Source: a virus (Duplodnaviria; Caudoviricetes). From it: a DNA stretch of 59,090 nt. Below, in pieces: positions 15,076-46,974 of this stretch. How positions within the stretch are numbered: position 1 is the stretch's first letter; every line of letters starts with the position of its first letter. The stretch lies in IMG/VR virus record IMGVR_UViG_3300005581_000015, positions 1 through 59,090 of that record. One strand, written 5' to 3'. The position numbers and the translations under genes were made by a program. A model generated the notes under the pieces. That model was not told the DNA's origin. It saw only the letters and a program-made list of their open reading frames with translations, and searched no databases.

Positions 15076-15693
15076 ATGGCTGTTTCATCACTAACTAGAA
15101 TGACAGTACCTTTGGCAAGTGACCAAAGTGCTAGCACCCAAGGCTTGCTAATGCCTAAACTAAAGTATCGCTTCCGCGTTACTTTTGAAAACTTTGGTGT
15201 ATCAACACCACGTACCGAACTAACAAAACAAGTTATTAGTTTTGCTCGTCCAGAAGTAACATTTGAAGAAATGTTGGTTCCAATTTACAATAGTACATTG
15301 AAACTTGCTGGCAAGCATAGCTGGGGCGATGTCACTTGTGAATTGCGTGACGATGCTGGCGGCAACGTTACCAAACGTGTTGGCGAGCAACTACAAAGGC
15401 AATTAGATTTTGCCGAACAAGCCAGCGCCGCTGCCGGTATTGACTATAAGTTTGTTACACGATTTGAAGTACTTGATGGTGGTAACGGTACTGCACAACC
15501 TGTAGTACTTGAAACCTGGGAGATTTATGGTTGCTACCTCAAAGGTGTTAACTATAATGATTTCAACTATGGCACCAGCGAAGCTGCAACAATCAGCATG
15601 ACAATTGCCTATGATAATGCACTACAAGTAGGTAGCCCAGGCGGTGTTGGCACCGTAATTGGTCGCATCGCTGGTGATGTAATCACAGGCTAA
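15076..15693 (+). CDS. Tail tube protein (T4 gp19-like)
   Basis: Follows the sheath gene; PKLKYRFRV, KLAGKHSW, WEIYGCY and TISMTIAYD motifs; TAAATA at 15052 and AGGAG SD. Confidence 0.85.
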   Translation: MAVSSLTRMTVPLASDQSASTQGLLMPKLKYRFRVTFENFGVSTPRTELTKQVISFARPEVTFEEMLVPIYNSTLKLAGKHSWGDVTCELRDDAGGNVTKRVGEQLQRQLDFAEQASAAAGIDYKFVTRFEVLDGGNGTAQPVVLETWEIYGCYLKGVNYNDFNYGTSEAATISMTIAYDNALQVGSPGGVGTVIGRIAGDVITG

Positions 15694-15697
15694 TACA

Positions 15698-16885
15698 ATG
15701 TCATTTGGACAGGACTTCATGAAGGGGTTCTTTGGATCAGACGGTTTGCGTGATTCGCAAACCGCCTCCAAGACCTTTCGAACAAACGGCTACGAACTTT
15801 CTCCTAGATTTAAGTTCCTGTTCCATGTGTCGTTTACGCTTAACACTACTGAAATCCCTGCGCTTAAAAGTATTTTTGGCGAGTCGGGTACTAATCAAAT
15901 TGGGTTAACTGTAAAAACTATTAATCTCCCGTCTTATAACATTGATCATGAAGAACTAAATCAATACAATCGTAAAAGACTAGTTCAAACACAGATCAAA
16001 TATCAACCAGTTGATATCACATTTCATGATGACGGCGGAGACGTAACACGTAATTTGTGGTATAACTATTTTGCGTATTATTACAAAGACCCAAGCCAAC
16101 AATATGGCAGCACTAGCAACTTAAACGGCAGTATTGGTGCATTGGCCAACATGCCGGGATTCAGTTACAATACTCGAGACATTTACACAGATAGCCGTCC
16201 AGTTAATGATTGGGGCTATGTTGGCGAAAGCTACACTGACAGCAGTGTGTTAGGCAAGCCTGCGTTTTTTAAAGATATTCGTATATACGGATTAAATCAA
16301 CACAAGTTTGCAGAGTATGTCTTGGTCAATCCCATTATCACAGCCTGGCAACATGATCAATATGATTATAGTCAAGGTGATGGAATGATGCAAAACTCAA
16401 TGACAGTCAAGTACGAAACTGTCAAGTACCGTAGCGGTGCCATTAGCGGTGTTAGATCAGACACCAATGTTAAAGGATTTGGCGATCCAGCCAACTACGA
16501 TACTGTGCGTAGCCCAATATCTCGACCTGGTAGCACTGCTAGTGTTCTAGGTCAGGGTGGGCTACTTGATACCGGTATTGGTATTGTTGAAGATTTACAA
16601 AGCGGAACATTGCTTGGTGCAATTGGTGCTGTGCAAAAAGCTGGCGCAACGTACAATACGTTCAAAGGTAAGAGTTTACAAAGCATTGCCAACGAAGAAG
16701 CAATTGCTGCCTCAAAACAAATTCTACAACAGAGCTTGCCTGGGGCAATTCGCGGTGCTAGTAGTGTACAACTATTTCCAACACCCCCTAGGGCTAATTC
16801 TGGTAGCCGGTCACTGTTTAATTTTGGTGGAGTTGGGGTATCATCATCGGGAATAAATATCGGTGGATTTAACCTACCATTCTAA
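15698..16885 (+). CDS. Tube-like baseplate/tail-tube initiator (gp48/gp54-like)
   Basis: Tube-fold-like segments VKTINLPSY, NQYNRKR, YQPVDITFHDD and SMTVKYE; position after the tube gene. Confidence 0.55.
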   Translation: MSFGQDFMKGFFGSDGLRDSQTASKTFRTNGYELSPRFKFLFHVSFTLNTTEIPALKSIFGESGTNQIGLTVKTINLPSYNIDHEELNQYNRKRLVQTQIKYQPVDITFHDDGGDVTRNLWYNYFAYYYKDPSQQYGSTSNLNGSIGALANMPGFSYNTRDIYTDSRPVNDWGYVGESYTDSSVLGKPAFFKDIRIYGLNQHKFAEYVLVNPIITAWQHDQYDYSQGDGMMQNSMTVKYETVKYRSGAISGVRSDTNVKGFGDPANYDTVRSPISRPGSTASVLGQGGLLDTGIGIVEDLQSGTLLGAIGAVQKAGATYNTFKGKSLQSIANEEAIAASKQILQQSLPGAIRGASSVQLFPTPPRANSGSRSLFNFGGVGVSSSGINIGGFNLPF

Positions 16886-17244
16886 TGTCTACAGTAAACG
16901 CACCAAACTCAAAAATTGATCAAACGGTAAAAATATTTGATACCTTTTACCTGTTCGAAGCTATTGTACCTGCAATGGAGTATGAAGTCATCTACAGTTA
17001 CTTTCAGTCGGTCATGGGAACAACACAAGCCGCAGCCAACTTTACTGTCACTGTGTTTAGGATAGCACAAGAAAGTCAGACCCCGGTTATGGCAATATTT
17101 GAACAGATCAAAGGCCTTGACCAACCACAATTATCATTAACACTGGCCTACTATCTTAATGGTTTGCAAAGTTTGAGTACATTACTAGGTATTGATGCAG
17201 TGGCAACGCCAAACTACTATGCAGCCAGAAATGTTGTGGTATGA
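16885..17244 (+). CDS. Hypothetical protein (structural cluster)
   Basis: Start and stop overlap both neighbours (TAATG, ATGA). Confidence 0.65.
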   Translation: MSTVNAPNSKIDQTVKIFDTFYLFEAIVPAMEYEVIYSYFQSVMGTTQAAANFTVTVFRIAQESQTPVMAIFEQIKGLDQPQLSLTLAYYLNGLQSLSTLLGIDAVATPNYYAARNVVV

Positions 17245-17672
17245 GCAAGTTTGCGCAAGGTGTTTTTGTCCCAACCAATCCTGACAAGTATGTAGGTCGA
17301 GGTAACATACGTTATCGCAGTGGCTGGGAACATGCTTTTATGCGATTTTGCGACACCAACGATCATATATTACAGTGGGCCAGTGAGAATGTTAGAATTC
17401 CCTATCGTCATCCACTCACAGGTAAAACTACAAACTATGTGCCAGATTTTTTGATCACGTATAGAACACGCAACAACAAAGTATGTGCTGAGCTGATTGA
17501 AATAAAACCCAAAAAACAAAGTGTACTAGAAGCAAAGATGAGCGATAGAGACCGTGCCATTGTTGCCATTAACTATGCCAAATGGGATGCCGCACAAAAG
17601 TGGTGCCGCAAACAAGGACTGGTATTTAGAGTTATTACCGAAGATCAGATCTTCCGTAACGGCAACAAGTAA
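17241..17672 (+). CDS. Head completion nuclease (T4 gp4-like, TnsA-type PD-(D/E)xK)
   Basis: PTNPDKY.G, YRSGWE..FM.FCD, WASE...IPY, YVPDF, IEIKPKKQ, N.AKW.AA and ITED motifs. Confidence 0.9.
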   Translation: MSKFAQGVFVPTNPDKYVGRGNIRYRSGWEHAFMRFCDTNDHILQWASENVRIPYRHPLTGKTTNYVPDFLITYRTRNNKVCAELIEIKPKKQSVLEAKMSDRDRAIVAINYAKWDAAQKWCRKQGLVFRVITEDQIFRNGNK

Positions 17673-18822: not shown

Positions 18823-20844
18823 ATGACATTTTTTTACGACTTAAACAAAAGACTAGACGGCATACGTGCCACTCCTGAAACTACTCATAAACAATTAAAT
18901 GAGCGTGACATGAGCAAGAGCATGGACGAAAGTGCGTTCCAAGCAGCCATTGGTAAAAAGAAATATGGTGACGAAGGCATGAAAGCCTTGCAAAAAGCTG
19001 GACGCAATCACTCCAGCGACAAGACCATGGATGCCATCCGTAACAGATTTGACAAGTACGATGAAAGTCAGGGCATGGCCGATGAAGGAACTGCATTTAC
19101 CAAGGCTGTAGTTGATGCCAAACGAGACGGTATTCAACCTGGTGAGAAAATCAACGTTGGCGGAAAAGAATATCCAGTCAAAGAAGCTGCAGGCGCAGTT
19201 GACTTTGACAAAGTACTAGATGCTATTGCCGCAATGTATGGCAATGACATGTGGCAAAATGATGCCATGCAGGATCTGGCCAATGATCTTGCACAGGCTG
19301 GACCAACTGATCGCGAACTAGATTTTATCATTGCCAAAGGTCGGTTACCAAAGCGTCTAGCTAACACACAATTCTCAGCAGGTGACAATGTTCAATTTGG
19401 CGAAGCCAGTGCTCCAATGACTGCCAAGCAAAAATCATTTGCCGCATTGGCTGAACCCAAAGACAAAATCACATTTGCTGACAAAATTGCTGGCGCCAAA
19501 AAAGAAGTTGACGAAATGCTAGGCGATGTAGCCGCAGAAGCAATGAAGAAAGCACTGGGTGGCGGCATGGGTCGCAGTGCTGAAATGGAAGAAAAAGAAG
19601 ATAACAGTCCATTCACAGCACACAAGCGTCCACGCACAGAACGACCCAAAGTCGGCAGCGTTGAGCGTGGGGCATTGCATGACATTGAACACACCGCAAC
19701 CGGTCGCAAAGTAACACGTAGAGTTGATCCCAACACCGGACACAGTGTTGGTGCCGATGATGACACTCCTGCCACTGGAGAAAAGCGTGGTAAAGGACGT
19801 CCAAAGAAAGCTGGCGGCCCAAATCAAGAGCGTGTAACTGCCAAGAGTCGTAAAACAGATCGCACAGCACATGGTCAGGATGGCTTTAAGAAAGATAAAA
19901 AAGTCAAAGAAAGTGACGAGTACGGTGATGAAGGCGACATGGCCAAAGATGACTTGCGTAGTATTGCCAAGGCAGCCGCAGAACTTAATTCATTGTTAAA
20001 CGACCATGATGATTTACCAGAGTGGGTTCAGAGCAAAATTACCAAAGCTCTAGACTACATCAACACCAGTAACCAATACATGGACCAGGAAAAATCTGAT
20101 GACGACACCGGCGATGATGTTGTAATGGGTGGCGATGAAGAGCTAGACGAAAAAGCCACAAGCAAAGCACAACGTAGAGCTGCCGCAATTGCCATGCATG
20201 CTCCCAAAGGCAAACTTCAGGGCGCCAGCAAAGAAATGAGCAAGATGCCCAAGAAAGAACTAGAGAAGTTTGCCGGCACAAAAGAAAAGGGCCTGCCTAA
20301 CAAGAAAGAAAAAACTCAAGAAACAACCTCTGCAGGTTCAGTGGCAACAAGCACTGCCGCTCCAAAGGCAGGCAAAGGCGGAGTACAGTTTGGTAAAGGC
20401 ATCTATGAAAGTCTAGATCGCCAGCTAAAACAACAACTCAACGAAGAAATGAGTATCAACATGAGTATTGGCACAGACGGCCGTAAAAGCATAACTGTCA
20501 CAGCCTCAGATGAAGATGCCGACCAACTAGCGCAGATTTTGAATCTAGCAGGTTTGCAAGGTCATGATCATGGCGCAGAAGCATGCCCTTCATGCGGCCA
20601 AGCCCCATGTGGTTGCGCTGAAGTTGTTGATGAGAATGCACCAGACTATCCACAGAACATGGGCCAAACGTCAGATACTAACTTTATGACCAAGACCAAT
20701 GCTGGCGGCTTAAACAAAGAAAAATATACTGGACAGTCAACTATTCCGGTATTGGCAAGCCAAGGTGATAGACAACATGCTTACGAGAATGTTGAACTAG
20801 AGCGTAGCTTGTTTAAATTGTATCAGGAAGTTAAATCAAAATGA
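18823..20844 (+). CDS. Large charged modular head/core protein with DUF3008-like module and AT-hook-like motif
   Basis: Repeated [LVM]-x-E sites (LNE, MDE, VKE, VDE, MEE, LDE), KRGKGRPKK, a KATSKAQRRAA...ELEKFAGTKEKGLP module and CPSCGQAPCGC. Confidence 0.55.
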   Translation: MTFFYDLNKRLDGIRATPETTHKQLNERDMSKSMDESAFQAAIGKKKYGDEGMKALQKAGRNHSSDKTMDAIRNRFDKYDESQGMADEGTAFTKAVVDAKRDGIQPGEKINVGGKEYPVKEAAGAVDFDKVLDAIAAMYGNDMWQNDAMQDLANDLAQAGPTDRELDFIIAKGRLPKRLANTQFSAGDNVQFGEASAPMTAKQKSFAALAEPKDKITFADKIAGAKKEVDEMLGDVAAEAMKKALGGGMGRSAEMEEKEDNSPFTAHKRPRTERPKVGSVERGALHDIEHTATGRKVTRRVDPNTGHSVGADDDTPATGEKRGKGRPKKAGGPNQERVTAKSRKTDRTAHGQDGFKKDKKVKESDEYGDEGDMAKDDLRSIAKAAAELNSLLNDHDDLPEWVQSKITKALDYINTSNQYMDQEKSDDDTGDDVVMGGDEELDEKATSKAQRRAAAIAMHAPKGKLQGASKEMSKMPKKELEKFAGTKEKGLPNKKEKTQETTSAGSVATSTAAPKAGKGGVQFGKGIYESLDRQLKQQLNEEMSINMSIGTDGRKSITVTASDEDADQLAQILNLAGLQGHDHGAEACPSCGQAPCGCAEVVDENAPDYPQNMGQTSDTNFMTKTNAGGLNKEKYTGQSTIPVLASQGDRQHAYENVELERSLFKLYQEVKSK

Positions 20845-21521
20845 AATCACTGCGTGACTATCTCAACGAAAGCGAATACGCCTACAACAACCCAGTGGTA
20901 GGCGATAATTTTGCTATCAACGTCAAAGAAGAATGTTTGTTAGAAACATACATCTGTGGCGAAACCAAAGATGGAATAGTATTACATGCTGACGATCGTT
21001 TAATGGACTTGCTTGAAAGTTATGGATATATTGGCACACAAATTGACGAAGCCACCAGCAACAGCATTGAGTTCCAAGGCCGCACAGTTGATCGTGCCAG
21101 CATAGAACTTGACGATGTAGATTCAAGTGATTATCCAGACTTTTCAGATGCATATATTAGCTACGCCACATACACTGATGGTACACCACTTGGTGATGAC
21201 GAACTAAATCAATTCAACGATCAATATTCTGACCTAGTACATGAGTTGGCATATGATAGTCTGCATGAAGATTCCATGGACGAAGCTGAATATCACGGAC
21301 GTAATGTTCCGTTAAACAAGCCCATGCAAGGTGATGTTAAAAAATCTAAAGTGTATGTTAAAAATCCCAAAGGTAACATAGTAAAAGTCAACTTTGGCGA
21401 TCCTAACATGAAAATTAAAAAATCAAACCCTGCTCGACGCAAGAGTTTTAGAGCAAGGCACAACTGTGAGAATCCTGGACCAAAAACCAGTGCTCGCTAT
21501 TGGTCATGTCGTGCTTGGTAA
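20841..21521 (+). CDS. Putative internal head protein with acidic middle and basic C-terminal modules
   Basis: MKSLRDYLNE start; middle DYPDFSDAYI module; C-terminal VKVNFGDPNM...RRKSFRARHNC...ARYWSC.AW. Confidence 0.6.
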   Translation: MKSLRDYLNESEYAYNNPVVGDNFAINVKEECLLETYICGETKDGIVLHADDRLMDLLESYGYIGTQIDEATSNSIEFQGRTVDRASIELDDVDSSDYPDFSDAYISYATYTDGTPLGDDELNQFNDQYSDLVHELAYDSLHEDSMDEAEYHGRNVPLNKPMQGDVKKSKVYVKNPKGNIVKVNFGDPNMKIKKSNPARRKSFRARHNCENPGPKTSARYWSCRAW

Positions 21522-21533
21522 AAGGAAAATAAA

Positions 21534-21833
21534 ATGCCCGCAAATGTCTATACAAGTTTAGGTAACGCAACAGTTTACACAGATAAACTACAAATTACCA
21601 CCGCTGCCAACGCAGTTACATATCAAACTTATGCTGTGGCCATAGGCACAGCAGCCGCCGCAGGCAATGTCTTTAGTGCACCTATTAATATTCCAGCCAA
21701 CACTGTGTTTGAAGTTTACTCGGGTGCAGGCAACAAAGTCACTGTTGTTGGAACACCATTTACTGCATTGGAACTTGGCACAGCCAGCTCAGGTATCATT
21801 GGCGTGTCAATGTCAGTGCCGCCATCAAGATAA
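21534..21833 (+). CDS. Small beta-rich structural-like hypothetical protein
   Basis: AAGGA SD; A/T/G/V-rich ORF. Confidence 0.6.
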   Translation: MPANVYTSLGNATVYTDKLQITTAANAVTYQTYAVAIGTAAAAGNVFSAPINIPANTVFEVYSGAGNKVTVVGTPFTALELGTASSGIIGVSMSVPPSR

Positions 21834-21837
21834 TATA

Positions 21838-22203
21838 ATGCGAGCACAGGAGTTTATCACCGAGCAAGACGGCACAATAGGCAAACGTAGACAAGTTGCC
21901 ACAGTGGGCCTAAATGTGTTCAGTGACAGTGAAAGATCCAATAGTGACTACACTCTTAATCGTGTGATGATGGCTGTGGCCATGGCCGACGGCTCTGGCA
22001 ATGCTTTGGACATGGATGAAAAAAGTTGGGTTGGCAAGCAACGTTCAGCACATCCTTATACCAAAGTTGAGCAAAACATGCTCAAACAGGCTTTCAAAGC
22101 CGCTGGCGCAAACTACACAGATTTAAATCACGGCGACATGGATTCTGAAGAGCATCCAGCAGTCAACACCACTAGCCCAATTCAAGGGTTCAAGGGCTAC
22201 TGA
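21838..22203 (+). CDS. Putative internal head protein, paralogue A
   Basis: Probable start MRAQEFITE at 21838; ends SPIQGFKGY. Confidence 0.65.
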   Translation: MRAQEFITEQDGTIGKRRQVATVGLNVFSDSERSNSDYTLNRVMMAVAMADGSGNALDMDEKSWVGKQRSAHPYTKVEQNMLKQAFKAAGANYTDLNHGDMDSEEHPAVNTTSPIQGFKGY

Positions 22204-22583
22204 TGAGAGCCCGTGAGTTCATTACTGAACAAAAAGAACTGGCACCAGAGCAGGCTAACCCCATGCGTTACACTTATGTGATTCCGGGACTCAGTGCATC
22301 GGACCCTTACAACAACTATAGATTTGGTGTGGCAATGGCTAGAGCCCGTAGCGATCAGGCAACCGACGGAGTAAACCCGTTCCGACCAGATTGGAGTGCA
22401 GAAACACCGTTTGGTGAACACGGTGTAGTAGTTGGCATGAATGCTGGCATTGCTCCACTTATTGACCAAGCATTGAAAATGACCAACACACCGGGTGGTA
22501 AGAAATTAGTGTCTACTCCCAAAAGCGATGAACCTGACTTTGTAGTCACACAAAGTCCAGTCAAGCCATTTAAGGGTTATTAA
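22203..22583 (+). CDS. Putative internal head protein, paralogue B
   Basis: MRAREFITE start; ends SPVKPFKGY; TGATG coupling to the previous gene. Confidence 0.65.
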   Translation: MRAREFITEQKELAPEQANPMRYTYVIPGLSASDPYNNYRFGVAMARARSDQATDGVNPFRPDWSAETPFGEHGVVVGMNAGIAPLIDQALKMTNTPGGKKLVSTPKSDEPDFVVTQSPVKPFKGY

Positions 22584-23442: not shown

Positions 23443-25011
23443 ATGGCCGCAAAAGACGAAATCACATTAATCAAATCCCCGCATAAAAAACAGTTGTACT
23501 CAGACATAGAATTACAACAGTTTGCAAAGTGTGCTGACCCTGTGACAGGCCCACTGTATTTCATGGACAATTTTTTCTATATACAACATCCTACCAAAGG
23601 TAGAATGTTGTATCACCCGTTTGATTATCAACGTCGACTTGTGGAAACATATCACAACTATCGATTCAGCATTTCAATGATGCCGCGGCAAACTGGTAAG
23701 TCAACATCGGCAGCTGGATATTTGTTATGGTATGCAATGTTTGTACCAGACAGCACAATCTTGGTTGCCGCACACAAGTACACTGGATCACAAGAGATTA
23801 TGCAACGCATTCGTTATGCGTATGAAAGTGTGCCAGACCATATCAGAGCCGGAGTCACAAGTTACAACAAAGGCAATTTAGATTTTGACAATGGCAGTCG
23901 TATTGTTTCAGCAACTACCACAGAAAATACCGGTCGTGGTATGAGTATATCATTGCTGTACGCAGACGAGTTTGCATTTGTACGACCCACCATTGCCACA
24001 GAATTCTGGACCTCTATCAGCCCCACGTTGGCCACTGGTGGTAAAGCAATTATTACCTCAACACCCAACAGCGACGAGGATCAGTTTGCACTGTTATGGA
24101 AAGGTGCCAACAAGTGTGAAGATGCATATGGCAACCCCACTGAATTAGGTATCAACGGATTTAAATCATATCGTAGTTACTGGAAAGAACACCCGGACCG
24201 TGATGACAAATGGGCAGTTGAACAACGTGCACAATTGGGCGAAGATCGTTTTAGACGAGAAATGGACTGCGAGTTCATTATCAATGACGAAACACTAATT
24301 GCACCTACTACATTAATTGACTTAGCTGGTGAAGACCCAGCTTACAGAATTGGTCAAGTACGTTGGTACAAAAAACCCGAACGAGATCGCATTTATGTTG
24401 TGGCCTTGGATCCCAGCCTTGGCACCGGCGGCGATCCGGCTGCTATACAAATATTCGAAGCCAACACCACAGTACAGATAGGCGAATGGCGACATAATAA
24501 AACCACAATTCCTGAGCAAATACGCATACTGGCCGACATTGTTGCACACATCAACGAAGTTGTTAAAAATCCACAGAACGTGTATTTCAGTGTGGAAAAC
24601 AACACCATTGGCGAGGCCGCACTGATATCCATTGCTGAGTACGGAGAAGAAAACATACAGGGCTATTTCCTCAGCGAAATTGGTGGCACCAGTGGCCGCA
24701 GGTATCGCAAAGGATTTAACACAGCACACAAGAGCAAACTTGCGGCCTGTTCTAAATTCAAAAACTTAATTGAATCACGTCGAATGACCATCAACAGCCG
24801 GCCGTTAATCAGCGAGCTTAAAACCTTTGTGGCACATGGCCTTAGCTATGCGGCCAAACCCGGGGAAACTGACGACTTAGTAATGTCTACATTGTTGGCT
24901 GTGCGTATGCTACAAACCCTGCAAAACTACCACAGTGATCTCAATGCACAGATCAAAGACCACAGCGACATGCTAATTGAGCCCATGCCCTTTATTAGTA
25001 TAATGCGATAA
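23443..25011 (+). CDS. terL: Terminase large subunit (T4 gp17-like)
   Basis: FDYQ Q-motif, PRQTGKST Walker A, LLYADEFAF Walker B, ITSTPN, FRREMDCEF, VALDPSLG, VENN and DDLVMS motifs. Confidence 0.95.
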   Translation: MAAKDEITLIKSPHKKQLYSDIELQQFAKCADPVTGPLYFMDNFFYIQHPTKGRMLYHPFDYQRRLVETYHNYRFSISMMPRQTGKSTSAAGYLLWYAMFVPDSTILVAAHKYTGSQEIMQRIRYAYESVPDHIRAGVTSYNKGNLDFDNGSRIVSATTTENTGRGMSISLLYADEFAFVRPTIATEFWTSISPTLATGGKAIITSTPNSDEDQFALLWKGANKCEDAYGNPTELGINGFKSYRSYWKEHPDRDDKWAVEQRAQLGEDRFRREMDCEFIINDETLIAPTTLIDLAGEDPAYRIGQVRWYKKPERDRIYVVALDPSLGTGGDPAAIQIFEANTTVQIGEWRHNKTTIPEQIRILADIVAHINEVVKNPQNVYFSVENNTIGEAALISIAEYGEENIQGYFLSEIGGTSGRRYRKGFNTAHKSKLAACSKFKNLIESRRMTINSRPLISELKTFVAHGLSYAAKPGETDDLVMSTLLAVRMLQTLQNYHSDLNAQIKDHSDMLIEPMPFISIMR

Positions 25012-25021: not shown

Positions 25022-27385
25022 ATGGCAACAAATACACCTTCAGCACAATTACACGATTTATTGGTCACGCATGACTTTGATGTAGAATCAAAAGATGCCA
25101 AACGCCCTAACACCACACCTGCGCCCGAAGATGCAGACATGTTTGTGTTTGATTTTGAGGCCAACGGAAACAACTATGGCACTGTGGTGACCTTATTTGA
25201 CAAAGACGGAACATTGAATTTATTCTACGGTGACAACGTGGGAAAATCCATGGAACCTGCAGATAAAAAAGAATGGTACGATTTTCTTTACCAGCTCACC
25301 ATGTTTGCCAAGCGCAACTGCCCGTCTTTTGAAATGCAAAACATCAGTAGATTGAAGTACACTCTCAAAGGCATTTCGGCAATCAACGAAGGATTGTTTG
25401 AAGGCTACTATGGAAACAAGAAAGTCAGCTATGCCGGCGAGCCCACAGAAGCACGATTGATGATCAAACACAATCGTCAACTGGGTGAAAATGACAAGCG
25501 TTATCGTTATGTGGAAAGTTTGTTTATTGAAACTGCAGATGATCAAAGATTTAGACTACCATTTACAAATCTAGCTGGTGGCCGCGCCATGCTAGAGCAT
25601 GTACGCCAGGGTGGCAAGCCCTACGACATTCGTGGTTGCCATATTGCAGAAATGGTGGAAGATGCCAAAGTACTAAGCAGATTTAATCGTGCTAAACAAA
25701 ATAAGATTTTTGAAGGCGAAACCAGCGAGTTAGTTGAAGCCAGCACAGCCTACTACGAAAGTGTACGCCACACTATCAAAAGTCTAGGCAACGGACGTGG
25801 ATATCAAAAGTACTTTGAGTCCTGGAGTCCAGCGCAGATCAACGAAACTGACACCTTAGTTGACTCAATAAAAGAAATGTTTATTGAACAAACACTAGAC
25901 TCTAGAATTGAGCAGGCCCTGCCAATACTGGCCAAAATAAGACAAAGAGAGACCAATATGAAAGAAGCACAAGTATTTGAAAACTGGGTCAACCAGGTAT
26001 GTGAGGGAACTTGGAGTTTGCCAGACGATCCTGACCAACGAGCTAAATTACAAAAGCTAATGAGCCAACCGTTGCTGGTTGGTCCAGACGCAACCAATGC
26101 CACTGAACAGTTGTATGACCTAGTGGGTGATGATCAGTTGTTTGATATCTTGGGCGACATAGCTGACCAGGATGGTGGCCCAGACATGAACGCCTGGGAT
26201 GATCCGCGTGTGATGGACCGCATGTATGAATTGGGCATTGATATGGCCCAGCCAGATGGTAATCAGGAGCAAGACATTGACCCTAGACAAGATCTAGATG
26301 AGTTGTCTCCTCAAACACTGGCAAGTTATGTTAAAAAATCCAATACTGATGCTAGAGATAGACTTCGTCAAGATCCAAAAAATCAATTTAAAAAAGCTGA
26401 AAAAAGAACCGCTGGTATAGGTCAAGCCATTGGCAAAATTCGTGCCACAATGGAACCTGCTACTAAACAGCAAGGTGTAGAGGAAGGTGCCATGAAGCAC
26501 CAAATGCATGCTGATGCAGACCGCATGAGTCGTGAACAATTTTGTGACAAGTATGGCAACGAGAACGGAGAATTCTGGGATAACATAAATGGCGAACTCA
26601 ACGAGGGCCAAGAAGACAGCGCAGTAGCCAGTGCTCTTACACGTCGCATCATGAGTCAACGTTTGGATTTGCTAAAGAAATATGGTCCAGTAAAAGTTAC
26701 TCAAGCAATTGATTCTGCCGCAGAATTTTTTGGTGACGTAGAAGAAATTGGTAGCAGTGACCTGAATGCCTACATGCAATATGTTGAAAAAGAACTAGGC
26801 GGCATGGCTGAGCAAGGTATAGATGAAGCTGATATGAACCGTAGAGGATTCTTAAAAGGACTTGGCGCTGCCGCAGTGGCCGGAGCCGCTGGTGTAGCAA
26901 GTGCTGATCAACAACAAGATTTAGGCAATGGCTTTGTTTTAACAACTATCAATGTTGCTGGACACACAGTTAAAGCAGTATTAGACACTGAAAGCAACAT
27001 AAGTGTTACTCTAAATCGTGGTACTAATGGATCTGCTATTATCAGAAGTCAAGCACGTTTTCTTTCAGTCAAGGATGGAAAAATTGTAGGCGCAAGCATG
27101 GATGTTGGACCGGCCACCACTGCCGCAATGAAAAAAGCTGGACTGTTAGAAAATGTAGAGCACGGTATGGAGGAAGCAATTGATCCAACAAATCCCAGAG
27201 ACTACGAGATTCCAGCTTACCAACGCAAGGAAAAAGGTATGCCACCCCTGACCCCCAGCGACATCGAAGACAAAGACAACGCCAGTCCAACCACACAACA
27301 AGGTCTAGACACACTAAAAAACAAATTGGGCATTAGAGAAAACAAAGATTTGACTAGAATTAAGCAACTTCTTCAAAAGATATAA
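25022..27385 (+). CDS. Large late protein whose C-terminal half is a string of short modules separated by x-x-E sites
   Basis: TAAATA at 25009-25014; LDE, GVEE, LNE, GMAE, GIDE, LLE, GMEE and IRE linkers; internal RRGFLK Tat-like motif. Confidence 0.7.
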   Translation: MATNTPSAQLHDLLVTHDFDVESKDAKRPNTTPAPEDADMFVFDFEANGNNYGTVVTLFDKDGTLNLFYGDNVGKSMEPADKKEWYDFLYQLTMFAKRNCPSFEMQNISRLKYTLKGISAINEGLFEGYYGNKKVSYAGEPTEARLMIKHNRQLGENDKRYRYVESLFIETADDQRFRLPFTNLAGGRAMLEHVRQGGKPYDIRGCHIAEMVEDAKVLSRFNRAKQNKIFEGETSELVEASTAYYESVRHTIKSLGNGRGYQKYFESWSPAQINETDTLVDSIKEMFIEQTLDSRIEQALPILAKIRQRETNMKEAQVFENWVNQVCEGTWSLPDDPDQRAKLQKLMSQPLLVGPDATNATEQLYDLVGDDQLFDILGDIADQDGGPDMNAWDDPRVMDRMYELGIDMAQPDGNQEQDIDPRQDLDELSPQTLASYVKKSNTDARDRLRQDPKNQFKKAEKRTAGIGQAIGKIRATMEPATKQQGVEEGAMKHQMHADADRMSREQFCDKYGNENGEFWDNINGELNEGQEDSAVASALTRRIMSQRLDLLKKYGPVKVTQAIDSAAEFFGDVEEIGSSDLNAYMQYVEKELGGMAEQGIDEADMNRRGFLKGLGAAAVAGAAGVASADQQQDLGNGFVLTTINVAGHTVKAVLDTESNISVTLNRGTNGSAIIRSQARFLSVKDGKIVGASMDVGPATTAAMKKAGLLENVEHGMEEAIDPTNPRDYEIPAYQRKEKGMPPLTPSDIEDKDNASPTTQQGLDTLKNKLGIRENKDLTRIKQLLQKI

Positions 27386-27421: not shown

Positions 27422-27517
27422 TAGTCTGTGTGTGCATTTTTGCCTAGTGTATTAGGCATCGTGTTCGTAAGAGCACACACAAAGGCTATATTAGGCATAT
27501 TTAAAGGAGAAATCATT

Positions 27518-28510
27518 ATGGCATCATTAGCAGACATTCGTGCAAAACTACAAGCCGCTGAAAGCAACAAAGGCGGCAACTCACAAACAGGTGGCGACAA
27601 CGCTATCTATCCACACTGGAACATCGACGAAGGTACAAGCGCATCAGTTCGCTTTTTACCCGATGGCAACTCAAAAAATACGTTCTTCTGGGTTGAACGT
27701 GCAATGATCAAACTTCCGTTTAACGGCATCAAGGGTGAATCTGAAAGCAAACAAGTTCAGGTACAAGTCCCTTGCGTTGAAATGTGGGGCGAGGCTTGCC
27801 CGGTCCTAGCAGAAGTGCGCACTTGGTTCAAAGACAAGAGCCTGGAAGACATGGGTCGCAAGTACTGGAAGAAACGTAGCTACGTGTTCCAAGGCTTTGT
27901 ACGTGAGAATCCTCTTGCTGACGACAAGTCACCAGAAAACCCAATTCGTAGATTCATTATTGGTCCACAAATTTTCCAGACTATCAAAGGCGCTTTGATG
28001 GATCCTGAGTTGGAAGAATCACCAACAGACTTGGTGCGTGGTTTAGATTTCCGTGTTACTAAAACCAGTAAAGGCGGATATGCTGACTACAGCACAAGTA
28101 AATGGGCACGTAAAGAAAGCCCGCTCACCGAAGCTGAAGCAATGGCACTTGAAAAGCATGGTTTGTATAACTTGAATGAGTTCTTGCCCAAGAAACCCGG
28201 CGCAGAAGAATTGCGTGTCATCAAAGAAATGTTTGAAGCCAGCGTAGATGGTCAACCATACGACACCGAGCGTTGGGGATCCTACTACCGTCCAGCTGGT
28301 GTAAGTGCACCTGCAGGTGGTTCAAGCAACAGCACATCAGCTCCAACACTCAAGGTGGCCACACCATCTCCAGTCACTGAAGATGACATCCCACCATTTG
28401 ATGTAGATGAACCAGCAGTGGCATCAACACCAGTTGCTAAACCAGCTGGCGACACTAAAAAAGCTGATGACATTTTGGCTATGATTCGAGCTCGACAAAA
28501 CAAGTCGTAA
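27518..28510 (+). CDS. Single-stranded DNA-binding protein (T4 gp32-like)
   Basis: AAGGAGA SD before ATG 27518; VRFLPDG, CVEMWGEACPV, YWKKRSY, GLDFRVTKTSKGGYADYSTSKW and a low-complexity acidic tail. Confidence 0.85.
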   Translation: MASLADIRAKLQAAESNKGGNSQTGGDNAIYPHWNIDEGTSASVRFLPDGNSKNTFFWVERAMIKLPFNGIKGESESKQVQVQVPCVEMWGEACPVLAEVRTWFKDKSLEDMGRKYWKKRSYVFQGFVRENPLADDKSPENPIRRFIIGPQIFQTIKGALMDPELEESPTDLVRGLDFRVTKTSKGGYADYSTSKWARKESPLTEAEAMALEKHGLYNLNEFLPKKPGAEELRVIKEMFEASVDGQPYDTERWGSYYRPAGVSAPAGGSSNSTSAPTLKVATPSPVTEDDIPPFDVDEPAVASTPVAKPAGDTKKADDILAMIRARQNKS

Positions 28511-28518: not shown

Positions 28519-29178
28519 ATGTTGAGTCAAATTGATAAAACAATTTGTCCTGACAGTTGTGAGGTGGTAGAGATACCATCCTCACAACAACATGTGTTTT
28601 TAATTTTCAAAAATGCTAGTTCTTCTATACGTATGGAATGCGAACGCCAGTCAGGAAAACACTACAATGCCAGCAATGTAACAGAACTTGCAGACATTGA
28701 TGTTTATCTACGTCAGCCTCGTGCTAGATATGTGTCTGGAGTCAATACATTTTTACAAAATTTACTCAAAGAAAATTCCAAGTTAGATCGACAAACAATT
28801 TTGTTCTTTGTTAAACAATTTCATTTCTTAAATCGTCATTATCTTCCGCAGTTTCACTGGTTGTTGAACTTAAACAGATTTAACAATCATTGCAGATTGA
28901 CACTGCGCGATGTTGATACTGTTGCAACAATTACAGATTATTATGATCAGCCTGTTGAAATATTAGCTGATGATCATTTTGAAGATTTGTTACAAATTGA
29001 TAATCGGGTTGAGTTATGGTTTTTCTTAGATAACATACTTAGAGAATTAATTGGAAAAACGTTGACATTTGCAGAAATATTAGAATACATTAAACACACA
29101 CAGCCTGACACATTTGATATTATTTTCAAAGACCAATTAGCATTATTACAGCCAGCGTATGTATTGTCCAAGACTTGA
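28519..29178 (+). CDS. Sulfotransferase-like protein
   Basis: IFKNASSSI (5'-PSB-like), LRQPRARYVSG (3'-PB-like) and NRHYLPQ resemble Sulfotransfer_2 motifs. Confidence 0.5.
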   Translation: MLSQIDKTICPDSCEVVEIPSSQQHVFLIFKNASSSIRMECERQSGKHYNASNVTELADIDVYLRQPRARYVSGVNTFLQNLLKENSKLDRQTILFFVKQFHFLNRHYLPQFHWLLNLNRFNNHCRLTLRDVDTVATITDYYDQPVEILADDHFEDLLQIDNRVELWFFLDNILRELIGKTLTFAEILEYIKHTQPDTFDIIFKDQLALLQPAYVLSKT

Positions 29179-30178
29179 TCACTTTGCAAGACTTAATCCC
29201 GAAGGAAAGATTTCAAAGTGTGGTCACATGGTCAATGCACCATTGTTTAGATCATTCAATGAAATGCAATCTAGTCAATGGCTAGAATCGGTCAAGGAAC
29301 AACTTGATAATGAAGTATGGCCCAGCGAATGCGTTAGATGTCAGACAACTGAAGAAATCAACGAAGGTAGTGTTCGGTTACAAACTATTAGTAGACACAA
29401 CAACCTGCTAGTGCATAATCCCAATTATCTAATAATTGGCGGCGTCTTAGACAATGTATGTAATAGTGCATGCCAAAGTTGTAACAGTGATTTAAGCACA
29501 AAAATTGGTAGCTTAGAAAGTGGTAAAAATTATATACAGATCAACAACGTTGAATTGTTTAATCGATTGCCCAAAGACCAAATAGTGCAATTGGATATCA
29601 ATGGTGGGGAACCAACTGCAAGTCCAAATTATCAAGCATTGTTACAATCCTTGCCAGACTCTGTAAAATATGTTAGACTTAATACAAATGCATCCCGAGT
29701 ATTACCCAATATCGAAGAACTATTACACAAAGACGTTCACTTGACTGTGACTATAAGTTTAGACGGAGTTGGCAATGTGCACGATTATGTGCGTTGGCCA
29801 ATTAAGTGGACAACTTTCATAGAGACAGTACAATCATATAAACAACTAACAACTCAGTATTCAAATTTACATTTGGATTTTTGGACAACCATACATGCTT
29901 TAAATGTAGCTGACTTGGATAACATAATTCAATTTGCAAATAACACTGACATACTTTGGTTTTTTGGCGTGCTCGAAACACCCAGTGAGTTGAGTATCCG
30001 TAATACTAATTTGCTCACTTTGTCTGCAAAGAAAAAATTATCATTGTCCAACAACGAGATATGTAGTAAACTATGTAAATTAATTGCAACTGATAACACT
30101 AATCAATCTAACATTGACGAATTCATAAACAAACAAGATTCATTGCGAAACATCAACATTTTGCAGTATAATATTTAA
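29159..30178 (+). CDS. Radical SAM protein with N-terminal SPASM/twitch-like Cys cluster
   Basis: CNSACQSC (Cx3Cx2C), GGEP, NTN, ISLDG and YVRWP..W motifs; N-terminal C..C..CVRC. Confidence 0.9.
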   Translation: MYCPRLDHFARLNPEGKISKCGHMVNAPLFRSFNEMQSSQWLESVKEQLDNEVWPSECVRCQTTEEINEGSVRLQTISRHNNLLVHNPNYLIIGGVLDNVCNSACQSCNSDLSTKIGSLESGKNYIQINNVELFNRLPKDQIVQLDINGGEPTASPNYQALLQSLPDSVKYVRLNTNASRVLPNIEELLHKDVHLTVTISLDGVGNVHDYVRWPIKWTTFIETVQSYKQLTTQYSNLHLDFWTTIHALNVADLDNIIQFANNTDILWFFGVLETPSELSIRNTNLLTLSAKKKLSLSNNEICSKLCKLIATDNTNQSNIDEFINKQDSLRNINILQYNI

Positions 30179-33837: not shown

Positions 33838-34596
33838 ATGAAAATTGTTATAGTTACCGGCGGGTTTGACCCCGTACATTCAGGACACATATCCTATCTT
33901 AATCACGCAGATCATTTAGGTGATCACTTGGTTGTAGGGTTAAATTCAGACGCTTGGCTTGCCCGTAAAAAAGGTCGACCTTTTATGCCTTGGCGAGAGC
34001 GTATGGTTGTATTAGGCAACCTTCACATGGTGGACGACGTCATTGATTTTGACGACAGCGATGGCACAGCTTGTGATGCTATCCGTCGAGTTCAAGAAAA
34101 ATATCCCAACGATGAAATCATCTTTGCCAACGGTGGCGACCGCACCAAAGAAAATATTCCAGAAATGGCATTTGAAGATGTGGAGTTTGTGTTTGGCGTT
34201 GGCGGCGAGAACAAAGCAAACTCTAGTAGCTGGATACTAGATGAGTGGAAAGCACCCAAGACCGAACGTGCCTGGGGATATTACCGCGTCTTACATGAAG
34301 TGGGTAATCACGTCAAACTCAAAGAACTCACAGTGGCACCCAAAACATGTTTGAGTATGCAACGCCATGATAGTCGTGCAGAATTTTGGTTTGTAGCCGA
34401 AGGTGAAGCCACAGTGTACACTGTTGATCCAAAAAGTACAGACCACGACATACTAGCTACTCCAGCTAAACACCAAAGCACATGGATACAACTTAATCAA
34501 TGGCATCAGTTGTGTAATGAAACTGATAGCCCACTGAAATTAATAGAAATTCAATACGGTGATAAATGTATTGAAGAGGATATACAACGACTATGA
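33838..34596 (+). CDS. Cytidylyltransferase-family (HIGH-type) nucleotidyltransferase fused to a ManC/PMI-type cupin
   Basis: TGGFDPVHSGH, VVGLNSD, FANGGDR; then ERAWG.Y, LSMQRH..RAEFW, WHQL.N and IEIQYG..C.EEDI.R. Confidence 0.85.
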   Translation: MKIVIVTGGFDPVHSGHISYLNHADHLGDHLVVGLNSDAWLARKKGRPFMPWRERMVVLGNLHMVDDVIDFDDSDGTACDAIRRVQEKYPNDEIIFANGGDRTKENIPEMAFEDVEFVFGVGGENKANSSSWILDEWKAPKTERAWGYYRVLHEVGNHVKLKELTVAPKTCLSMQRHDSRAEFWFVAEGEATVYTVDPKSTDHDILATPAKHQSTWIQLNQWHQLCNETDSPLKLIEIQYGDKCIEEDIQRL

Positions 34597-35270
34597 TTCC
34601 AATTTTTATAGGCTATGACCCTAGAGAAGCAATTGCCTTCCACACCTGTGCCAACAGTATTATCAGACATGCAACACAGCCTGTACAAATTATTCCTCTG
34701 GCTTTAAATCTATTCAAAGACTACAAAGAAACACACACTGACGGTAGTAATCAATTTATCTACAGCCGTTTCCTTGTGCCACATTTAATGAAATTCAATG
34801 GATGGGCAATATTCATTGACGGCGATATGATAGTGCGTGATGATATTACCAAGTTATGGGAATTACAAAATCCTTATATGGATGTGTTGGTAGTTAAGCA
34901 CGATTATAAAACAAAGATGACTGAAAAGTATCTTGGCGCAAAGAATGAAGACTACCCACGTAAGAATTGGAGCAGTGTAATTCTTTGGAATTGTAACAGC
35001 TTCCCTAATCGCAAGTTAACACCAGAATTTGTACAAAAAGCCACAGGTGCAGAACTGCATCGGTTTACCTGGATAGACAACGAACGTCTTGGCGAATTGC
35101 CCATTGAATGGAATTGGCTGCCAGATGAATTTGGTGAAAACCTTGATGCTAAACTATTGCATTATACGTTGGGTGCACCCTGCTTCCATGAGTTTGCCAA
35201 CACCCCGCAAGGCGGTGAATGGCACCGGGAACGAATGTTAGCTGAATATTGCCTACAACGAGGCATTTAA
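34593..35270 (+). CDS. GT-A glycosyltransferase (GT8-like)
   Basis: IFIGYDPRE, SRFLVP, FIDGDM (DxD), YPRKNWSSV, EWNWL and LLHYTLG.P motifs. Confidence 0.8.
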   Translation: MIPIFIGYDPREAIAFHTCANSIIRHATQPVQIIPLALNLFKDYKETHTDGSNQFIYSRFLVPHLMKFNGWAIFIDGDMIVRDDITKLWELQNPYMDVLVVKHDYKTKMTEKYLGAKNEDYPRKNWSSVILWNCNSFPNRKLTPEFVQKATGAELHRFTWIDNERLGELPIEWNWLPDEFGENLDAKLLHYTLGAPCFHEFANTPQGGEWHRERMLAEYCLQRGI

Positions 35271-36928
35271 TGCTTAAAGTTTTTATTGGGCACGATAGTC
35301 GAGATCAGCAAGCTGCCGAGGTATGCAAGTACAGTATTTTAAAATATGCCAGCATTGAGGTTGAAGTTCATTTTTTAAATGAAGAAGAATTACGACTAAG
35401 ATCTCTGTTTACACGCATGCCCGACCATGAAGATTTTGAAACCAAAGAAGCTGAACATCTGTATACTAGATTTTTAGTTCCGCATTTTTGTGGGTATACC
35501 GGATGGGCAGTATATGTTGACTGTGATTTTTTGTTCATCGACGACATTGCAAAATTATTTAAATTGCGGAATGATCGTTATGCAGTTCAATTAGTAAAAC
35601 ACAAGTTTGACACATCTGTCAGAAAGAAATTCAATAATAGACCACAAAGGTTATATCCAAGAAAAAATTGGACCAGCATGATGTTGATAAACTGTGAGCA
35701 CCCAGAAATTAGTAAACTCACTGTGGATTTTGTTAACAATGAACCCAAGGATAATCTCATACAATTGGAATGGCTACCAAATCGAAGCATCGGCGAGTTA
35801 AAACCTGAATGGAATTGGCTAGTGGGTTGGCACAAGGAACCCATTAACGGAGAACCTCGAGCACTACATTACACCGAGGGTGGCCCGTGGTTGCCTGCAG
35901 CCAAGCATGTTGAGTATGGAGTTTTTTGGTGGAAGTTACAGCAAGAAATGGAGCAGGCCGCTTATGTACCACCAGATGTAACACAACCTGAATCAATACT
36001 TCCGGAACTAAAATCAATATATGAAAAACTAGTGTATTATCGTGTAGACCCAGCTGGCAAGTACTACAATATAACCAAACAAGATATTATCAACGATATA
36101 GATAATTTAAACAATAATGCTGTGTATGCAGTAGAGGCTGAATTTATGGATGAAACCAACAATAAACATGAAAATAAAGGTCATCAATACGACCCTTTCT
36201 TACAAAGTTTTATATTAGGATCCGGGGGTCAGATAACAGTCTGGGACAAAGTTAAAGCAAGTATGGTACCAGTTGTACTCAGGGGTGTAACAAAACGCAA
36301 ACAAATGAAAGCCTGTCGGGAAGCCAATAGAGACTTTTATTATATCGATACTGGATATTTTGGTAATGGTCGTAAAAAACTCTATCACAGAATTACAAAA
36401 AACGACATGCAAAATATAGGGCCAGTAATCCACAGACCTCGAGACCGATTATCAGTCACTGGTTATCAAGCACGTAAATTCAAGCTAGGCGGAAAGATTT
36501 TATTAGCACCGCCCAGTCAAAAGTTGTTGCAGTGTTATGATTTAGATTTAGAATCCTGGATTACACGCACAAAACAAGAAATTGGATTGTATACCGACCG
36601 CGAAATAATTGTACGTGAAAAACAAGGACGCAGTGTGCGAGTGACCACAGACACCATGGAAATGGCGCTGGACAAAGACATTTATTGTTTGGTGACATTT
36701 TCAAGTATTGCTGCCGTGGAAGCAGTGATGTTGGGTAAGCCGGCGATTGTACTTGGCCCCAGTGCCGCATACAGTGTGTGCAGTGATTCGTTGGAAGAAA
36801 TTGAAAAGCTGTATATTCCCACACTTGATGAAGTGGAAGAATGGGCCGCACATTTGGCTTATTGCCAATTCACTGAGGTTGAAATGCGTGATGGTACCGC
36901 TTGGAAGATTCTAAACCAAGATGCATGA
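35270..36928 (+). CDS. Fusion of GT8-like glycosyltransferase and KpsS/KpsC-like (capsule synthesis, GT-B) domain
   Basis: N-half is paralogous to 34593 (VDCDF, YPRKNW, LHYTEGGPW); C-half has YIDTGYFG, ILLAPPS and LVTFSSIAAVEAVMLGKP. Confidence 0.7.
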   Translation: MLKVFIGHDSRDQQAAEVCKYSILKYASIEVEVHFLNEEELRLRSLFTRMPDHEDFETKEAEHLYTRFLVPHFCGYTGWAVYVDCDFLFIDDIAKLFKLRNDRYAVQLVKHKFDTSVRKKFNNRPQRLYPRKNWTSMMLINCEHPEISKLTVDFVNNEPKDNLIQLEWLPNRSIGELKPEWNWLVGWHKEPINGEPRALHYTEGGPWLPAAKHVEYGVFWWKLQQEMEQAAYVPPDVTQPESILPELKSIYEKLVYYRVDPAGKYYNITKQDIINDIDNLNNNAVYAVEAEFMDETNNKHENKGHQYDPFLQSFILGSGGQITVWDKVKASMVPVVLRGVTKRKQMKACREANRDFYYIDTGYFGNGRKKLYHRITKNDMQNIGPVIHRPRDRLSVTGYQARKFKLGGKILLAPPSQKLLQCYDLDLESWITRTKQEIGLYTDREIIVREKQGRSVRVTTDTMEMALDKDIYCLVTFSSIAAVEAVMLGKPAIVLGPSAAYSVCSDSLEEIEKLYIPTLDEVEEWAAHLAYCQFTEVEMRDGTAWKILNQDA

Positions 36929-37823: not shown

Positions 37824-38422
37824 TACCAATCGTTAATTGGGTTCTTGGTATCCCTAAACCACCAGTACAAATCTGGACCTTTCCAATCATTGGCAAAGTG
37901 TCTTAGGTACCAGGGTATACTACGTGGATGTGTTAGGCATGCAGGATCATACATGAGTTTCTTTGATTTAACTGGCATGTCTGGACCGTGCAACCCAATA
38001 AAAACAAACTTGGCAGCATAGCCAGCAATCAACTCACTGAGCCATCCCAGGTCAGCGTCGGGTATACTACCCAATACCTGTGTGCATATCACAGCATCAA
38101 ACTTTGTTGTTGGTGCTGGCAATTGATCAATTCCGGGCACACATGGGTCGTACTTAAACACAGACCGTGCGTTGATACGTTCTTGAAAAGTCATTGTCTC
38201 ACTTGTAGTTCCGTCATCAAGCCCGTAACAGGCTGGAATTGTGTACTGATACCCCTTGCCACAGCCGTAGTCTAACACAGTCTGTGCTTGGTACTTGTCC
38301 ATTAGATATCTAATTTGATTGTGATAATTTTTTGAATCAGCACCAGTCCAATTTTTTGAATTATTCTTTTGAAACCCGCGCCCAATTGCCACGCTTTGGT
38401 GATAGTGTTCTGAGGCCATCAA
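37811..38422 (-). CDS. Class I SAM-dependent methyltransferase
   Basis: VLDYGCGKG, YDP and FDAVICTQVL motifs. Confidence 0.85.
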   Translation of the reverse strand: MMASEHYHQSVAIGRGFQKNNSKNWTGADSKNYHNQIRYLMDKYQAQTVLDYGCGKGYQYTIPACYGLDDGTTSETMTFQERINARSVFKYDPCVPGIDQLPAPTTKFDAVICTQVLGSIPDADLGWLSELIAGYAAKFVFIGLHGPDMPVKSKKLMYDPACLTHPRSIPWYLRHFANDWKGPDLYWWFRDTKNPINDWYQAR

Positions 38423-40849: not shown

Positions 40850-40850
40850 C

Positions 40851-41988: not shown

Positions 41989-42005
41989 ATTATATCCTTT
42001 GTTGT

Positions 42006-45223: not shown

Positions 45224-45235
45224 GTGAGGTATTTA

Positions 45236-46938: not shown

Positions 46939-46974
46939 CTTTTTCATAAATATTATCATGTAAGGAGACCATTG

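Follow-up and report, generated by a model that had tools for sequence, protein, structure and literature searches.

The stretch analysed here, called the window below, is the whole of the 59,090-base IMG/VR virus record IMGVR_UViG_3300005581_000015, and the gene under study is the open reading frame (ORF) at 25022..27385 on the plus strand, which encodes a protein of 787 amino acids (aa) with a conserved front domain, a variable array of cassettes and a conserved C-terminal tail. Since CheckV rates the record as 17% complete, the phage genome is probably about 350 kb in size; judged from its sequence, the source phage is an uncultured T4-like jumbo myovirus. No near-identical DNA to the window was found in the cultured-phage collection. 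The gene is located directly 3′ of the large terminase gene (23443..25011, plus strand; Pfam Terminase_6N and 6C; phrog_36964, E 7e-113) and 5′ of a gene for a gp32-like single-stranded DNA-binding protein (27515-28510), beyond which UvsX, UvsY, a helicase and a primase are encoded. As is typical of polyvalent proteins, it belongs to a group of virion and packaging genes: apart from the adjoining terminase, there are tail and head-completion genes upstream, including a very long tail sheath of 1098 aa (11709-15005), a tail tube (15076-15693) and a head-closure protein (17241-17672). The first-pass annotation had placed a candidate injected effector polyprotein at 25958..27385. This unit is real, but its start was wrong, as position 25958 corresponds to Met313 (MKEAQVFENWVNQVCE) and the gene begins at 25022. 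All the linkers named in that annotation were found (VCE328, LDE427, GVEE488, LNE528, GMAE597, GIDE602, LLE710, GMEE718 and IRE773). In a Pfam search, the sole match of the protein was TAT_signal (PF10518; aa 604-624) with 22.3 bits, 0.4 bits under the cut-off of 22.7, and PHROG gave one match, to phrog_13484 ‘virion structural protein’ (aa 123-268, E 7.6e-8). From the evidence presented below, we consider it fairly probable that this gene encodes a head-packaged polyprotein that is cut by the prohead protease.

The frequencies of cassettes are given for 172 distinct tails, obtained from 199 proteins (121 found by protein search, and the complete ORF ends at 78 loci); all features of the protein lie on the plus strand, and a slash marks a candidate cut. 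The conserved front domain (aa 1-403, 25022..26230), a distant relative of the PA5oct virion protein gp278, contains the tandem candidate sites INE123/G and LFE127/G in one flexible loop (25382..25402) and VCE328/G in another (25997..26005). It ends in a conserved module with invariant columns (aa 329-403, GTWSLPD..GDDQLFD.., 26006..26230), which terminates at MYE403/L. An acidic linker (aa 404-427, 26231..26302), present in 6 of the 172 tails, ends with LDE427 and leads to cassette M1 (aa 428-488, 26303..26485), which is basic (isoelectric point 10.1), ends with QQGVEE488 and was found in four tails. Close homologues have unrelated blocks at the M1 position, and M1 itself recurs in the leader-bearing protein P0138. 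Cassette M2 (aa 489-528, 26486..26605; seven tails) ends with GELNE528; this MKHQ block is missing from P0008 and swapped for other blocks in P0006 and P0007. Cassette M3 (aa 529-597, ..SAVASALTRRIM..EEIGSSD.., 26606..26812), ending with GGMAE597, is the commonest of all, occurring in 85 tails and also in the leader-bearing proteins P0141, P0187 and P0189. Behind M3, the five-residue spacer QGIDE between two junction Glu (26813..26827) is followed immediately by a Tat-type signal (twin-arginine translocation; ADMNRRGFLKG, a hydrophobic stretch and ASA; 26828..26905) right behind IDE602, and by a passenger mini-domain (DLGNGF..AVLDT.., beta-sheet and helix; 26906..27175) that ends with HGMEE718. 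This Tat block of the window protein was present in two of the tails. Cassette M5 (aa 719-773, 27176..27340; 15 tails), ending with GIRE773, carries the motif DYEIPAYQRK, which resembles the C-terminal peptide of FtsZ, and the protein closes with the conserved C-terminal tail NKDLTRIKQLLQKI (27341..27382), a candidate prohead-anchoring peptide. Cutting at all candidate sites would give pieces of 0.6-17 kDa, many of them small and acidic.

The motif G-[ILVM]-x-E is found six times in the C-terminal half of the protein (aa 405-787), whereas 0.52 occurrences were expected, and none of 5000 shuffles reached six. Its density in the target is 1.57 per 100 aa compared to 0.06 elsewhere (26-fold), the comparison set being the 48 other ORFs of the window (15,100 aa, nine occurrences). 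The protein belongs to a large family: at least 3509 homologues (90%-identity clusters) were detected at E <= 0.001 among the best 8000 candidates scored, and at least 547 confirmed IMG/VR stretches encode a relative. Among the 120 matches listed, the lengths range from 508 to 970 aa, and none carries a name. Most homologues match only aa 1-~410 or 1-~600, and the nine closest relatives (79-98% identical) differ from the window protein by whole blocks bounded by junction Glu. For example, the 121-aa Tat block (129 aa in P0001), extending from QGIDE to HGMEE, is inserted between GGMAE and AIDP; eight of the nine close homologues read directly from GGMAE to AIDP, and only P0001 shares the block. 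In the same way, the interval between LDE and GVEE/G[AS]MKHQ is occupied by unrelated blocks, or by none, depending on the homologue.

To quantify this exchange, we collected 293 distinct pure insertions of at least 15 aa with well-aligned flanks, allowing equivalent gap placements. Both ends of the insertion fell exactly at [ILVM]xE in 70 of them (24%), compared to 1.0% for random placement, and within ±4 residues of such a site in 146 (50%, compared to 7.4%). The control motif [DKRN]xE was found within four residues in 4 of the 293 insertions, versus 2.1%. Homology breakpoints determined without regard to any motif gave a consistent picture: in 32% of 368 windows, the aligned part ended with Glu, the next residue was most often Gly (17%), and Met, Val and Ala were frequent two to three residues before the Glu. 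The enrichment at the boundaries of high-scoring segment pairs was modest (0.385 versus 0.221 and 0.372 versus 0.172), because BLAST ends are fuzzy, and the indel test was used instead. Cutting the tails at every [ILVM]xE produced 1200 segments of at least 15 aa, which group into 275 families; 155 families have a single member, and 42 are represented in at least five tails. Constant module content across homologues had been named as a finding that would speak against a polyprotein; what we observed were 153 different module orders among the 172 tails. The expectation that modules are gained, lost or replaced at the Glu linkers was borne out both by the exact indels and by the position of the Tat block between GMAE and GMEE.

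The logo built from the 99 junctions that flank exact insertions has Gln at P5 (36%), Gly at P4 (51%), Met (52%), Val (37%) or Leu (9%) at P3, Ala at P2 (52%), Glu at P1 and Gly at P1′ (52%), resulting in the consensus (Q)-G-[M/V]-A-E followed by G. The junctions thus have the hydrophobic-x-Glu form found at the processing points of gp21 substrates. The codons used at the junctions vary synonymously: GVAEG is encoded by nine different 15-mers in 13 contexts and GMAEG by six in 12. Therefore, it is the peptide that is conserved and not a DNA crossover site, and selection at the junction, as read from these sequences, acts on the peptide rather than on the DNA.

The Tat consensus consists of S/T-R-R-x-F-L-K, a hydrophobic region and an A-x-A cut site, and Tat signals are not known to work other than at a free N-terminus. 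In the window protein, NRRGFLKG, an Ala/Gly-rich stretch and ASA are all present, but the signal is internal (aa 603-628) and would become N-terminal only if the chain were cut at IDE602. Among all sequences in hand, we found 33 distinct Tat-like signals; all 33 are located two to four residues behind the Glu of [ILVM]xE (random expectation 9.7%), and none is at the true N-terminus of a protein. In view of this apparent need for a free N-terminus, the position of these signals behind junctions is the strongest functional argument for cutting. The contexts of the signals vary (AE/ADMNRR, EE/DLSRR, EE/VDRR, AE/IDRR, DE/LSRR and others), and at least five different passengers follow them. Furthermore, of 60 uncharged hydrophobic or glycine-zipper stretches, 43 have their start no more than 12 aa from a site, compared to 30%. 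A search with the Tat block (aa 603-718) among 1.84 billion proteins gave 44 representative clusters, all of them mosaic phage-like proteins in which the passenger occurs at varied positions, with or without the Tat signal. Representatives with the passenger domain start with Met and have [ILVM]xE within 16 aa in 29 of 41 cases, compared to 112 of the 459 ORFs of a complete relative. In the AlphaFold2 (AF2) model of the Tat module, the predicted local distance difference test score (pLDDT) reaches values of at least about 90 between aa ~30 and ~100 of the module, and both ends are disordered; the passenger fold had no match in the PDB, the best Z being 4.2.

Two host-facing motifs had been proposed in the first-pass annotation, a Tat-type signal and an FtsZ-tail-like peptide, and both are present at the sequence level. 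The C-terminal end of E. coli K-12 FtsZ, DYLDIPAFLRKQ, is identical in 9 of 12 positions to DY-EIPAYLRKQ of the homologue P0020; in the window protein, the motif DYEIPAYQRK is at aa 727-736 (27200-27229). It lies near the N-terminus of the predicted piece, while in FtsZ itself it is at the C-terminal end. A PDB sequence search with aa 719-787 gave no matches at E <= 10.

The link to the virion comes from the front domain. Matches in cultured phages (tblastn) were confined to aa ~86-317 and came from 14 records, all with less than 60% identity; 11 of these are PA5oct-like Pseudomonas jumbo phages. The PA5oct homologue gp278, whose gene lies two genes after that of the large terminase, carries the annotation ‘virion structural protein, ESI-MS/MS’. 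We considered gp278 as a cultured example of the array and rejected it, since it has the front domain but not the cassette array. The AF2 model of the front domain has a mean pLDDT of 78 and a predicted template modelling score of 0.44. Foldseek gave no PDB matches for it at E <= 0.001, the best Z in a wide structural search was 6.4, which is inside the noise stated for the tool, and nothing beyond lead level was obtained from the ESM Atlas. The structural neighbours obtained from BFVD were phage proteins without characterisation, apart from one entry, at E 5e-19 and 18% identity, that is named ‘Large polyvalent protein-associated domain-containing protein’. The low-confidence loops 119-127, 272-275 and 323-330 each contain a conserved hydrophobic-x-Glu site, pLDDT being below 50 in the first and the last of them. 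INE123/G, LFE127/G and VCE328/G are kept in all 82 aligned homologues, as is the P1′ Gly of VCE328, whereas INE275 is kept in 53 and MYE403 in 64. Since the low-confidence loops each hold such a conserved site, the front part may also be cut into pieces.

The corresponding protease was found in relatives. Four long records, two of them complete with terminal repeats (344 and 364 kb), encode front domains 55-60% identical to that of the target, and all four contain Peptidase_S77 of the T4 gp21 type (82-87 bits) and a gp23-type capsid protein (~325 bits). The order of their head-module genes is T4-like: portal, small proteins, protease, scaffold, capsid protein. Their capsid protein shares 65% identity with its counterparts in PA5oct-like phages and in Vibrio phage 2.275.O. 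Among five records nearer to the clade with QG[MV]AE junctions, the capsid-protein family was matched in two; one match is truncated where the contig stops, and the other comes from the clade of G001.

A run of four ORFs at 18823-22583, upstream of the large terminase gene, looks like a set of capsid-cargo genes. The first, on the plus strand at 18823..20844, encodes a mosaic protein of 673 aa with the leader MTFFYDLNKRL.., similar to the MNFxDL.. leaders of passenger-domain proteins; over aa 119-197, it shares 72-76% identity with a cassette found in the polyprotein-family members P0034 and P0095. The second (20841..21521, plus strand) encodes 226 aa with the T4-like leader MKSLRDYLNE and a C-terminal module 70-85% identical to the leader-bearing P0219, P0187 and others. 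Two small paralogous ORFs (21838-22203 and 22203-22583, plus strand) have the leaders MRAQEFITE and MRAREFITE; both end with ..FKGY, and ORFs of G002 with a leader of this type end with ..FKGYKR or ..FKGYSR. In a complete relative, five ORFs have T4-like leaders, three of them at the corresponding position. Of 75 shorter proteins matching aa 405-787, many are contig-end fragments, but some, on long contigs, are separate leader-bearing genes: P0138 (MRLKEFILE..) carries M1, and P0141 (MRLFEFAQE..) carries M3 and a Tat signal. M1, M3 and the Tat block thus occur in leader-bearing proteins as well as in the target family. From the cassettes shared with these genes and with ORF 18823-20844, we conclude on sequence grounds that the target gene belongs to a network of mosaic proteins using T4-style leaders and the same joints. 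Other mosaic proteins from this group of phages are also rich in G[VMIL]xE joints, with eight in P0213 (779 aa), six in P0200 and four in P0209; since these joints each separate units of 40-120 aa, the joint is in use far outside the gene next to the terminase.

A further common element is the C-terminal end. The tail motif hydrophobic-x-R/K-hydrophobic-K/R/Q-x-L/I/M-small is present in 159 of the 172 tails. In relatives, the scaffold protein ends with ..IDLKRLAGL, which is similar to the family tail over the last ~10 residues, as judged by eye, and several leader-bearing mosaic proteins share this resemblance. In the relatives G001-G003 (L095 5212-6964, L096 and L097), the scaffold ends with ..[VI]ID[LF]KRLAGL and the protease with ..V[IK]RLI[QR][GE]LKI; both ends resemble the family tail ..LARIKSLALLK. 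These similarities suggest that scaffold, protease and polyprotein family may share a C-terminal prohead-binding peptide. In a scan of the 459 ORFs of G002, the polyprotein homologue alone had the strict C-tail pattern, and the scaffold protein alone had two or more strict junction motifs, from which we take the QG[MV]AE form to be clade-specific.

Taken as a polyprotein, the protein could work as follows; packaging, cutting, retention, injection and any host effect are steps that we infer. The constant front domain (aa 1-403), and perhaps the constant C-tail, would hold the chain in the prohead core, a role in loading that fits the front domain as a distant relative of a virion protein. During head maturation, the serine protease of the T4 gp21 type would cut behind the junction Glu to give about ten pieces of 2-17 kDa, and those retained in the head would exit with the DNA at the next infection. 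After cutting, one piece would start with a Tat export signal and another would bear the FtsZ-tail-like peptide. Because every joint is the same, recombination could swap cassettes while leaving loading and release intact.

A more tentative proposal, which we regard as possible but rather doubtful, is that cutting by the capsid maturation protease serves as an unmasking switch, so that buried, inert export signals become N-terminal only inside the prohead. Tat-type and Sec-like or glycine-zipper signals would then be masked in the producing cell, and the pre-folded mini-proteins, injected with the DNA, would be sent by the Tat machinery of the new host to the periplasm or membrane before phage gene expression. 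The uniform junction would constitute a plug-in magazine, with cargo reshuffled among thousands of related phages.

The interpretation as a polyprotein, which had been the core of the first-pass annotation, is supported by the module exchange, by the gp21-type protease in relatives and by the leaders on neighbouring genes; it fits less well in that the target has no leader and that P3 is not Leu or Ile. Several observations weigh against it. The protein starts with MATNTPSAQLHDLLVTHDFDVE (MATNTPSAQL), and no N-terminal targeting leader of ~10 residues was seen there; the junction P3 is mainly Met or Val, whereas L/I-X-E is described for T4 gp21. Generic [ILV]xE is at chance level in aa 405-787 (7 observed, 4.8 expected, P=0.18 in 5000 shuffles), and the enriched motif G-[ILVM]-x-E was chosen after inspection of the sequence. 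About half of the insertions (147 of 293) do not have a site within four residues at both ends, and as the tail sequences are related, the insertion counts do not represent independent events. There is no protease gene in the window, which is a 17%-complete fragment, and the protease was seen only in relatives whose front domain is 55-60% identical. The distant complete relative G002 does not have the QG[MV]AE form of the junction, and aa 529-787 had no protein match in any cultured phage. Finally, small fragments mostly leave the head in T4, so that pieces of 2-8 kDa may never reach the host.

This last point leads to an alternative that we hold to be unlikely, namely that the array is a disposable core- or scaffold-like extension, which is cut and its pieces expelled from the maturing head, without any role in the next host, the cassettes being filler or assembly aids. 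There are precedents: the T4 core proteins are described as being cut into many fragments that mostly leave the head (available text of PMC9026906), and propeptides of 111-254 residues are described for SPN3US as removed by multiple cleavages (available text of PMC10052503). The family C-tail, moreover, resembles the C-end of the relatives' scaffold, and many of the predicted pieces are small and acidic. However, filler is not expected to contain complete Tat signals that all, 33 out of 33, follow a junction at a distance of two to four residues, nor do a confidently folded mini-domain in one cassette, an FtsZ-tail-like peptide in another and the very fast turnover (275 segment families and 153 architectures in 172 tails) fit this explanation.

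We give still less credit to the idea that the chain stays intact as a modular virion protein, the junction being a flexible, recombination-friendly linker. Polyvalent proteins, as described in the available text of PMC5512222, combine many domains per packaged chain, some being delivered unprocessed, and the BFVD neighbour of the front domain has a polyvalent-protein name. On the other hand, the linker peptide is conserved despite synonymous codons and has the form of a T4-type protease site, and buried Tat signals would be useless in an uncleaved chain. Nor does the protein look like the uncleaved polyvalent type: none of the 42 homologues searched has a Pfam family above the cut-off (seven have sub-threshold glycine-zipper matches), and in this Pfam search neither the target nor these homologues had the several recognisable conflict domains, such as nucleases, ARTs, methylases, peptidases and LPD domains, that are the hallmark of polyvalent proteins, or embedded peptidases. 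That the modules are nested small genes read from internal translation starts, or that the protein is no virion component, is very improbable: Met313 is invariant and a Met precedes the twin arginines in the commonest (‘ADM’) context, but only there, the Met-less DLS-, VD- and ID- contexts therefore arguing against internal starts; most junctions have no Met behind them; no convincing ribosome-binding site precedes Met313 or Met605 (nor does one precede the gene's own start); and the gene lies in a structural-gene neighbourhood, with a distant PA5oct homologue annotated as a virion protein.

If the gene encodes a polyprotein, as we favour, the closest known system is that of the T4 internal proteins. 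T4 gp21 is described as cutting behind Glu in L/I-X-E, loading still takes place but processing is blocked if the cut position is occupied by Asp, and Alt is also cut at its C-terminus (available text of PMC9026906); the T4 capsid targeting sequence is given as MKTYQEFIAE (available text of PMC8442874), and the T-even internal proteins are portrayed as a diverse set with only the targeting sequence in common (available text of PMC3012670). The likeness to IPI, IPII, IPIII and Alt consists in the T4-type head module with Peptidase_S77 in relatives, the hydrophobic-x-Glu motif, the leaders on cassette-sharing sister genes (MRAREFITE compared to MKTYQEFIAE) and a diverse, fast-evolving cargo. However, the T4 proteins are encoded by separate genes, each being cut once behind a 10-residue leader, whereas the protein studied here combines numerous unrelated mini-modules, separated by an internal junction that recurs along the chain, and contains buried export signals; the leader is replaced by a 400-aa constant domain and a constant C-tail, and P3 is Met or Val.

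Other systems share single properties with this protein. The gp22, gp67 and gp68 proteins and the propeptides of phiKZ and SPN3US are likewise single chains with several Glu sites for the prohead protease, and the C-tail here is scaffold-like; but these are conserved assembly proteins whose fragments are discarded, whereas the pieces here are cassettes that vary and in part contain export signals or folded domains. Polyvalent proteins, including MuF-fused toxins, also combine a constant virion-associated part with a variable multi-module payload thought to be codelivered with DNA (Iyer et al. 2017; available text of PMC5512222). They differ in having recognisable enzyme domains and release, if any, by embedded peptidases (same text), whereas, in our proposal, modules of 40-120 aa would be released by the prohead protease, a separate enzyme acting at one uniform type of junction. 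Polyproteins of eukaryotic RNA viruses and peptide-hormone precursors are similarly beads on a string with a repeated protease site and a signal that is N-terminal after cutting; they are evolutionarily unrelated, and here the proposed cutting would take place inside the capsid and the products would act in the next host cell. We found no description of such a system in the literature covered, which did not extend to subscription-only papers, and none that joins a capsid targeting sequence with twin-arginine signals. The word ‘polyprotein’ appeared beside a capsid targeting sequence in a T4 head review only, where, in the available text, it means a foot-and-mouth-disease antigen (PMC3012670). 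In the available text of a jumbo-phage comparative-genomics overview (PMC7824862), ‘polyvalent’ occurs, whereas prohead protease, internal head, capsid-packaged and polyprotein do not.

Some further features of the window were recorded. Two tail-tube paralogues of 205 and 395 aa are encoded side by side (15076-16885). Among the replication genes, there are three radical-SAM ORFs (phrog_14086; 29159-30178, 50716-51951 and 57561-58670). A block of sugar- and methyl-transfer genes (33838-47757) could be a DNA or surface-sugar modification island; it contains a heptose-phosphate kinase/adenylyltransferase-like ORF, a phosphoheptose-isomerase-like ORF, at least four minus-strand methyltransferases (37811-45223) and a glycosyltransferase (46084-46938). 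Read from an internal start, the last, cut-off ORF (58781-59089) would begin with the leader-like MRTAAQFIKE, but its short length does not permit a judgement.

If the junctions are cut, T4-like jumbo phages would have turned the one-leader-one-protein loading of T4 into a modular magazine, in which a single gene loads the capsid with about ten ready-made peptides and evolution swaps cartridges at a standard joint. The buried Tat signals raise the testable idea that an injected virion protein is re-exported by the host, and the standard joint together with the leader could be a design rule for packing several foreign proteins into T4-type capsids. Since the family is so large, with its thousands of clusters and hundreds of IMG/VR stretches, it would, if this is true, represent a major reservoir, unread to date, of immediate-early factors directed at the host.

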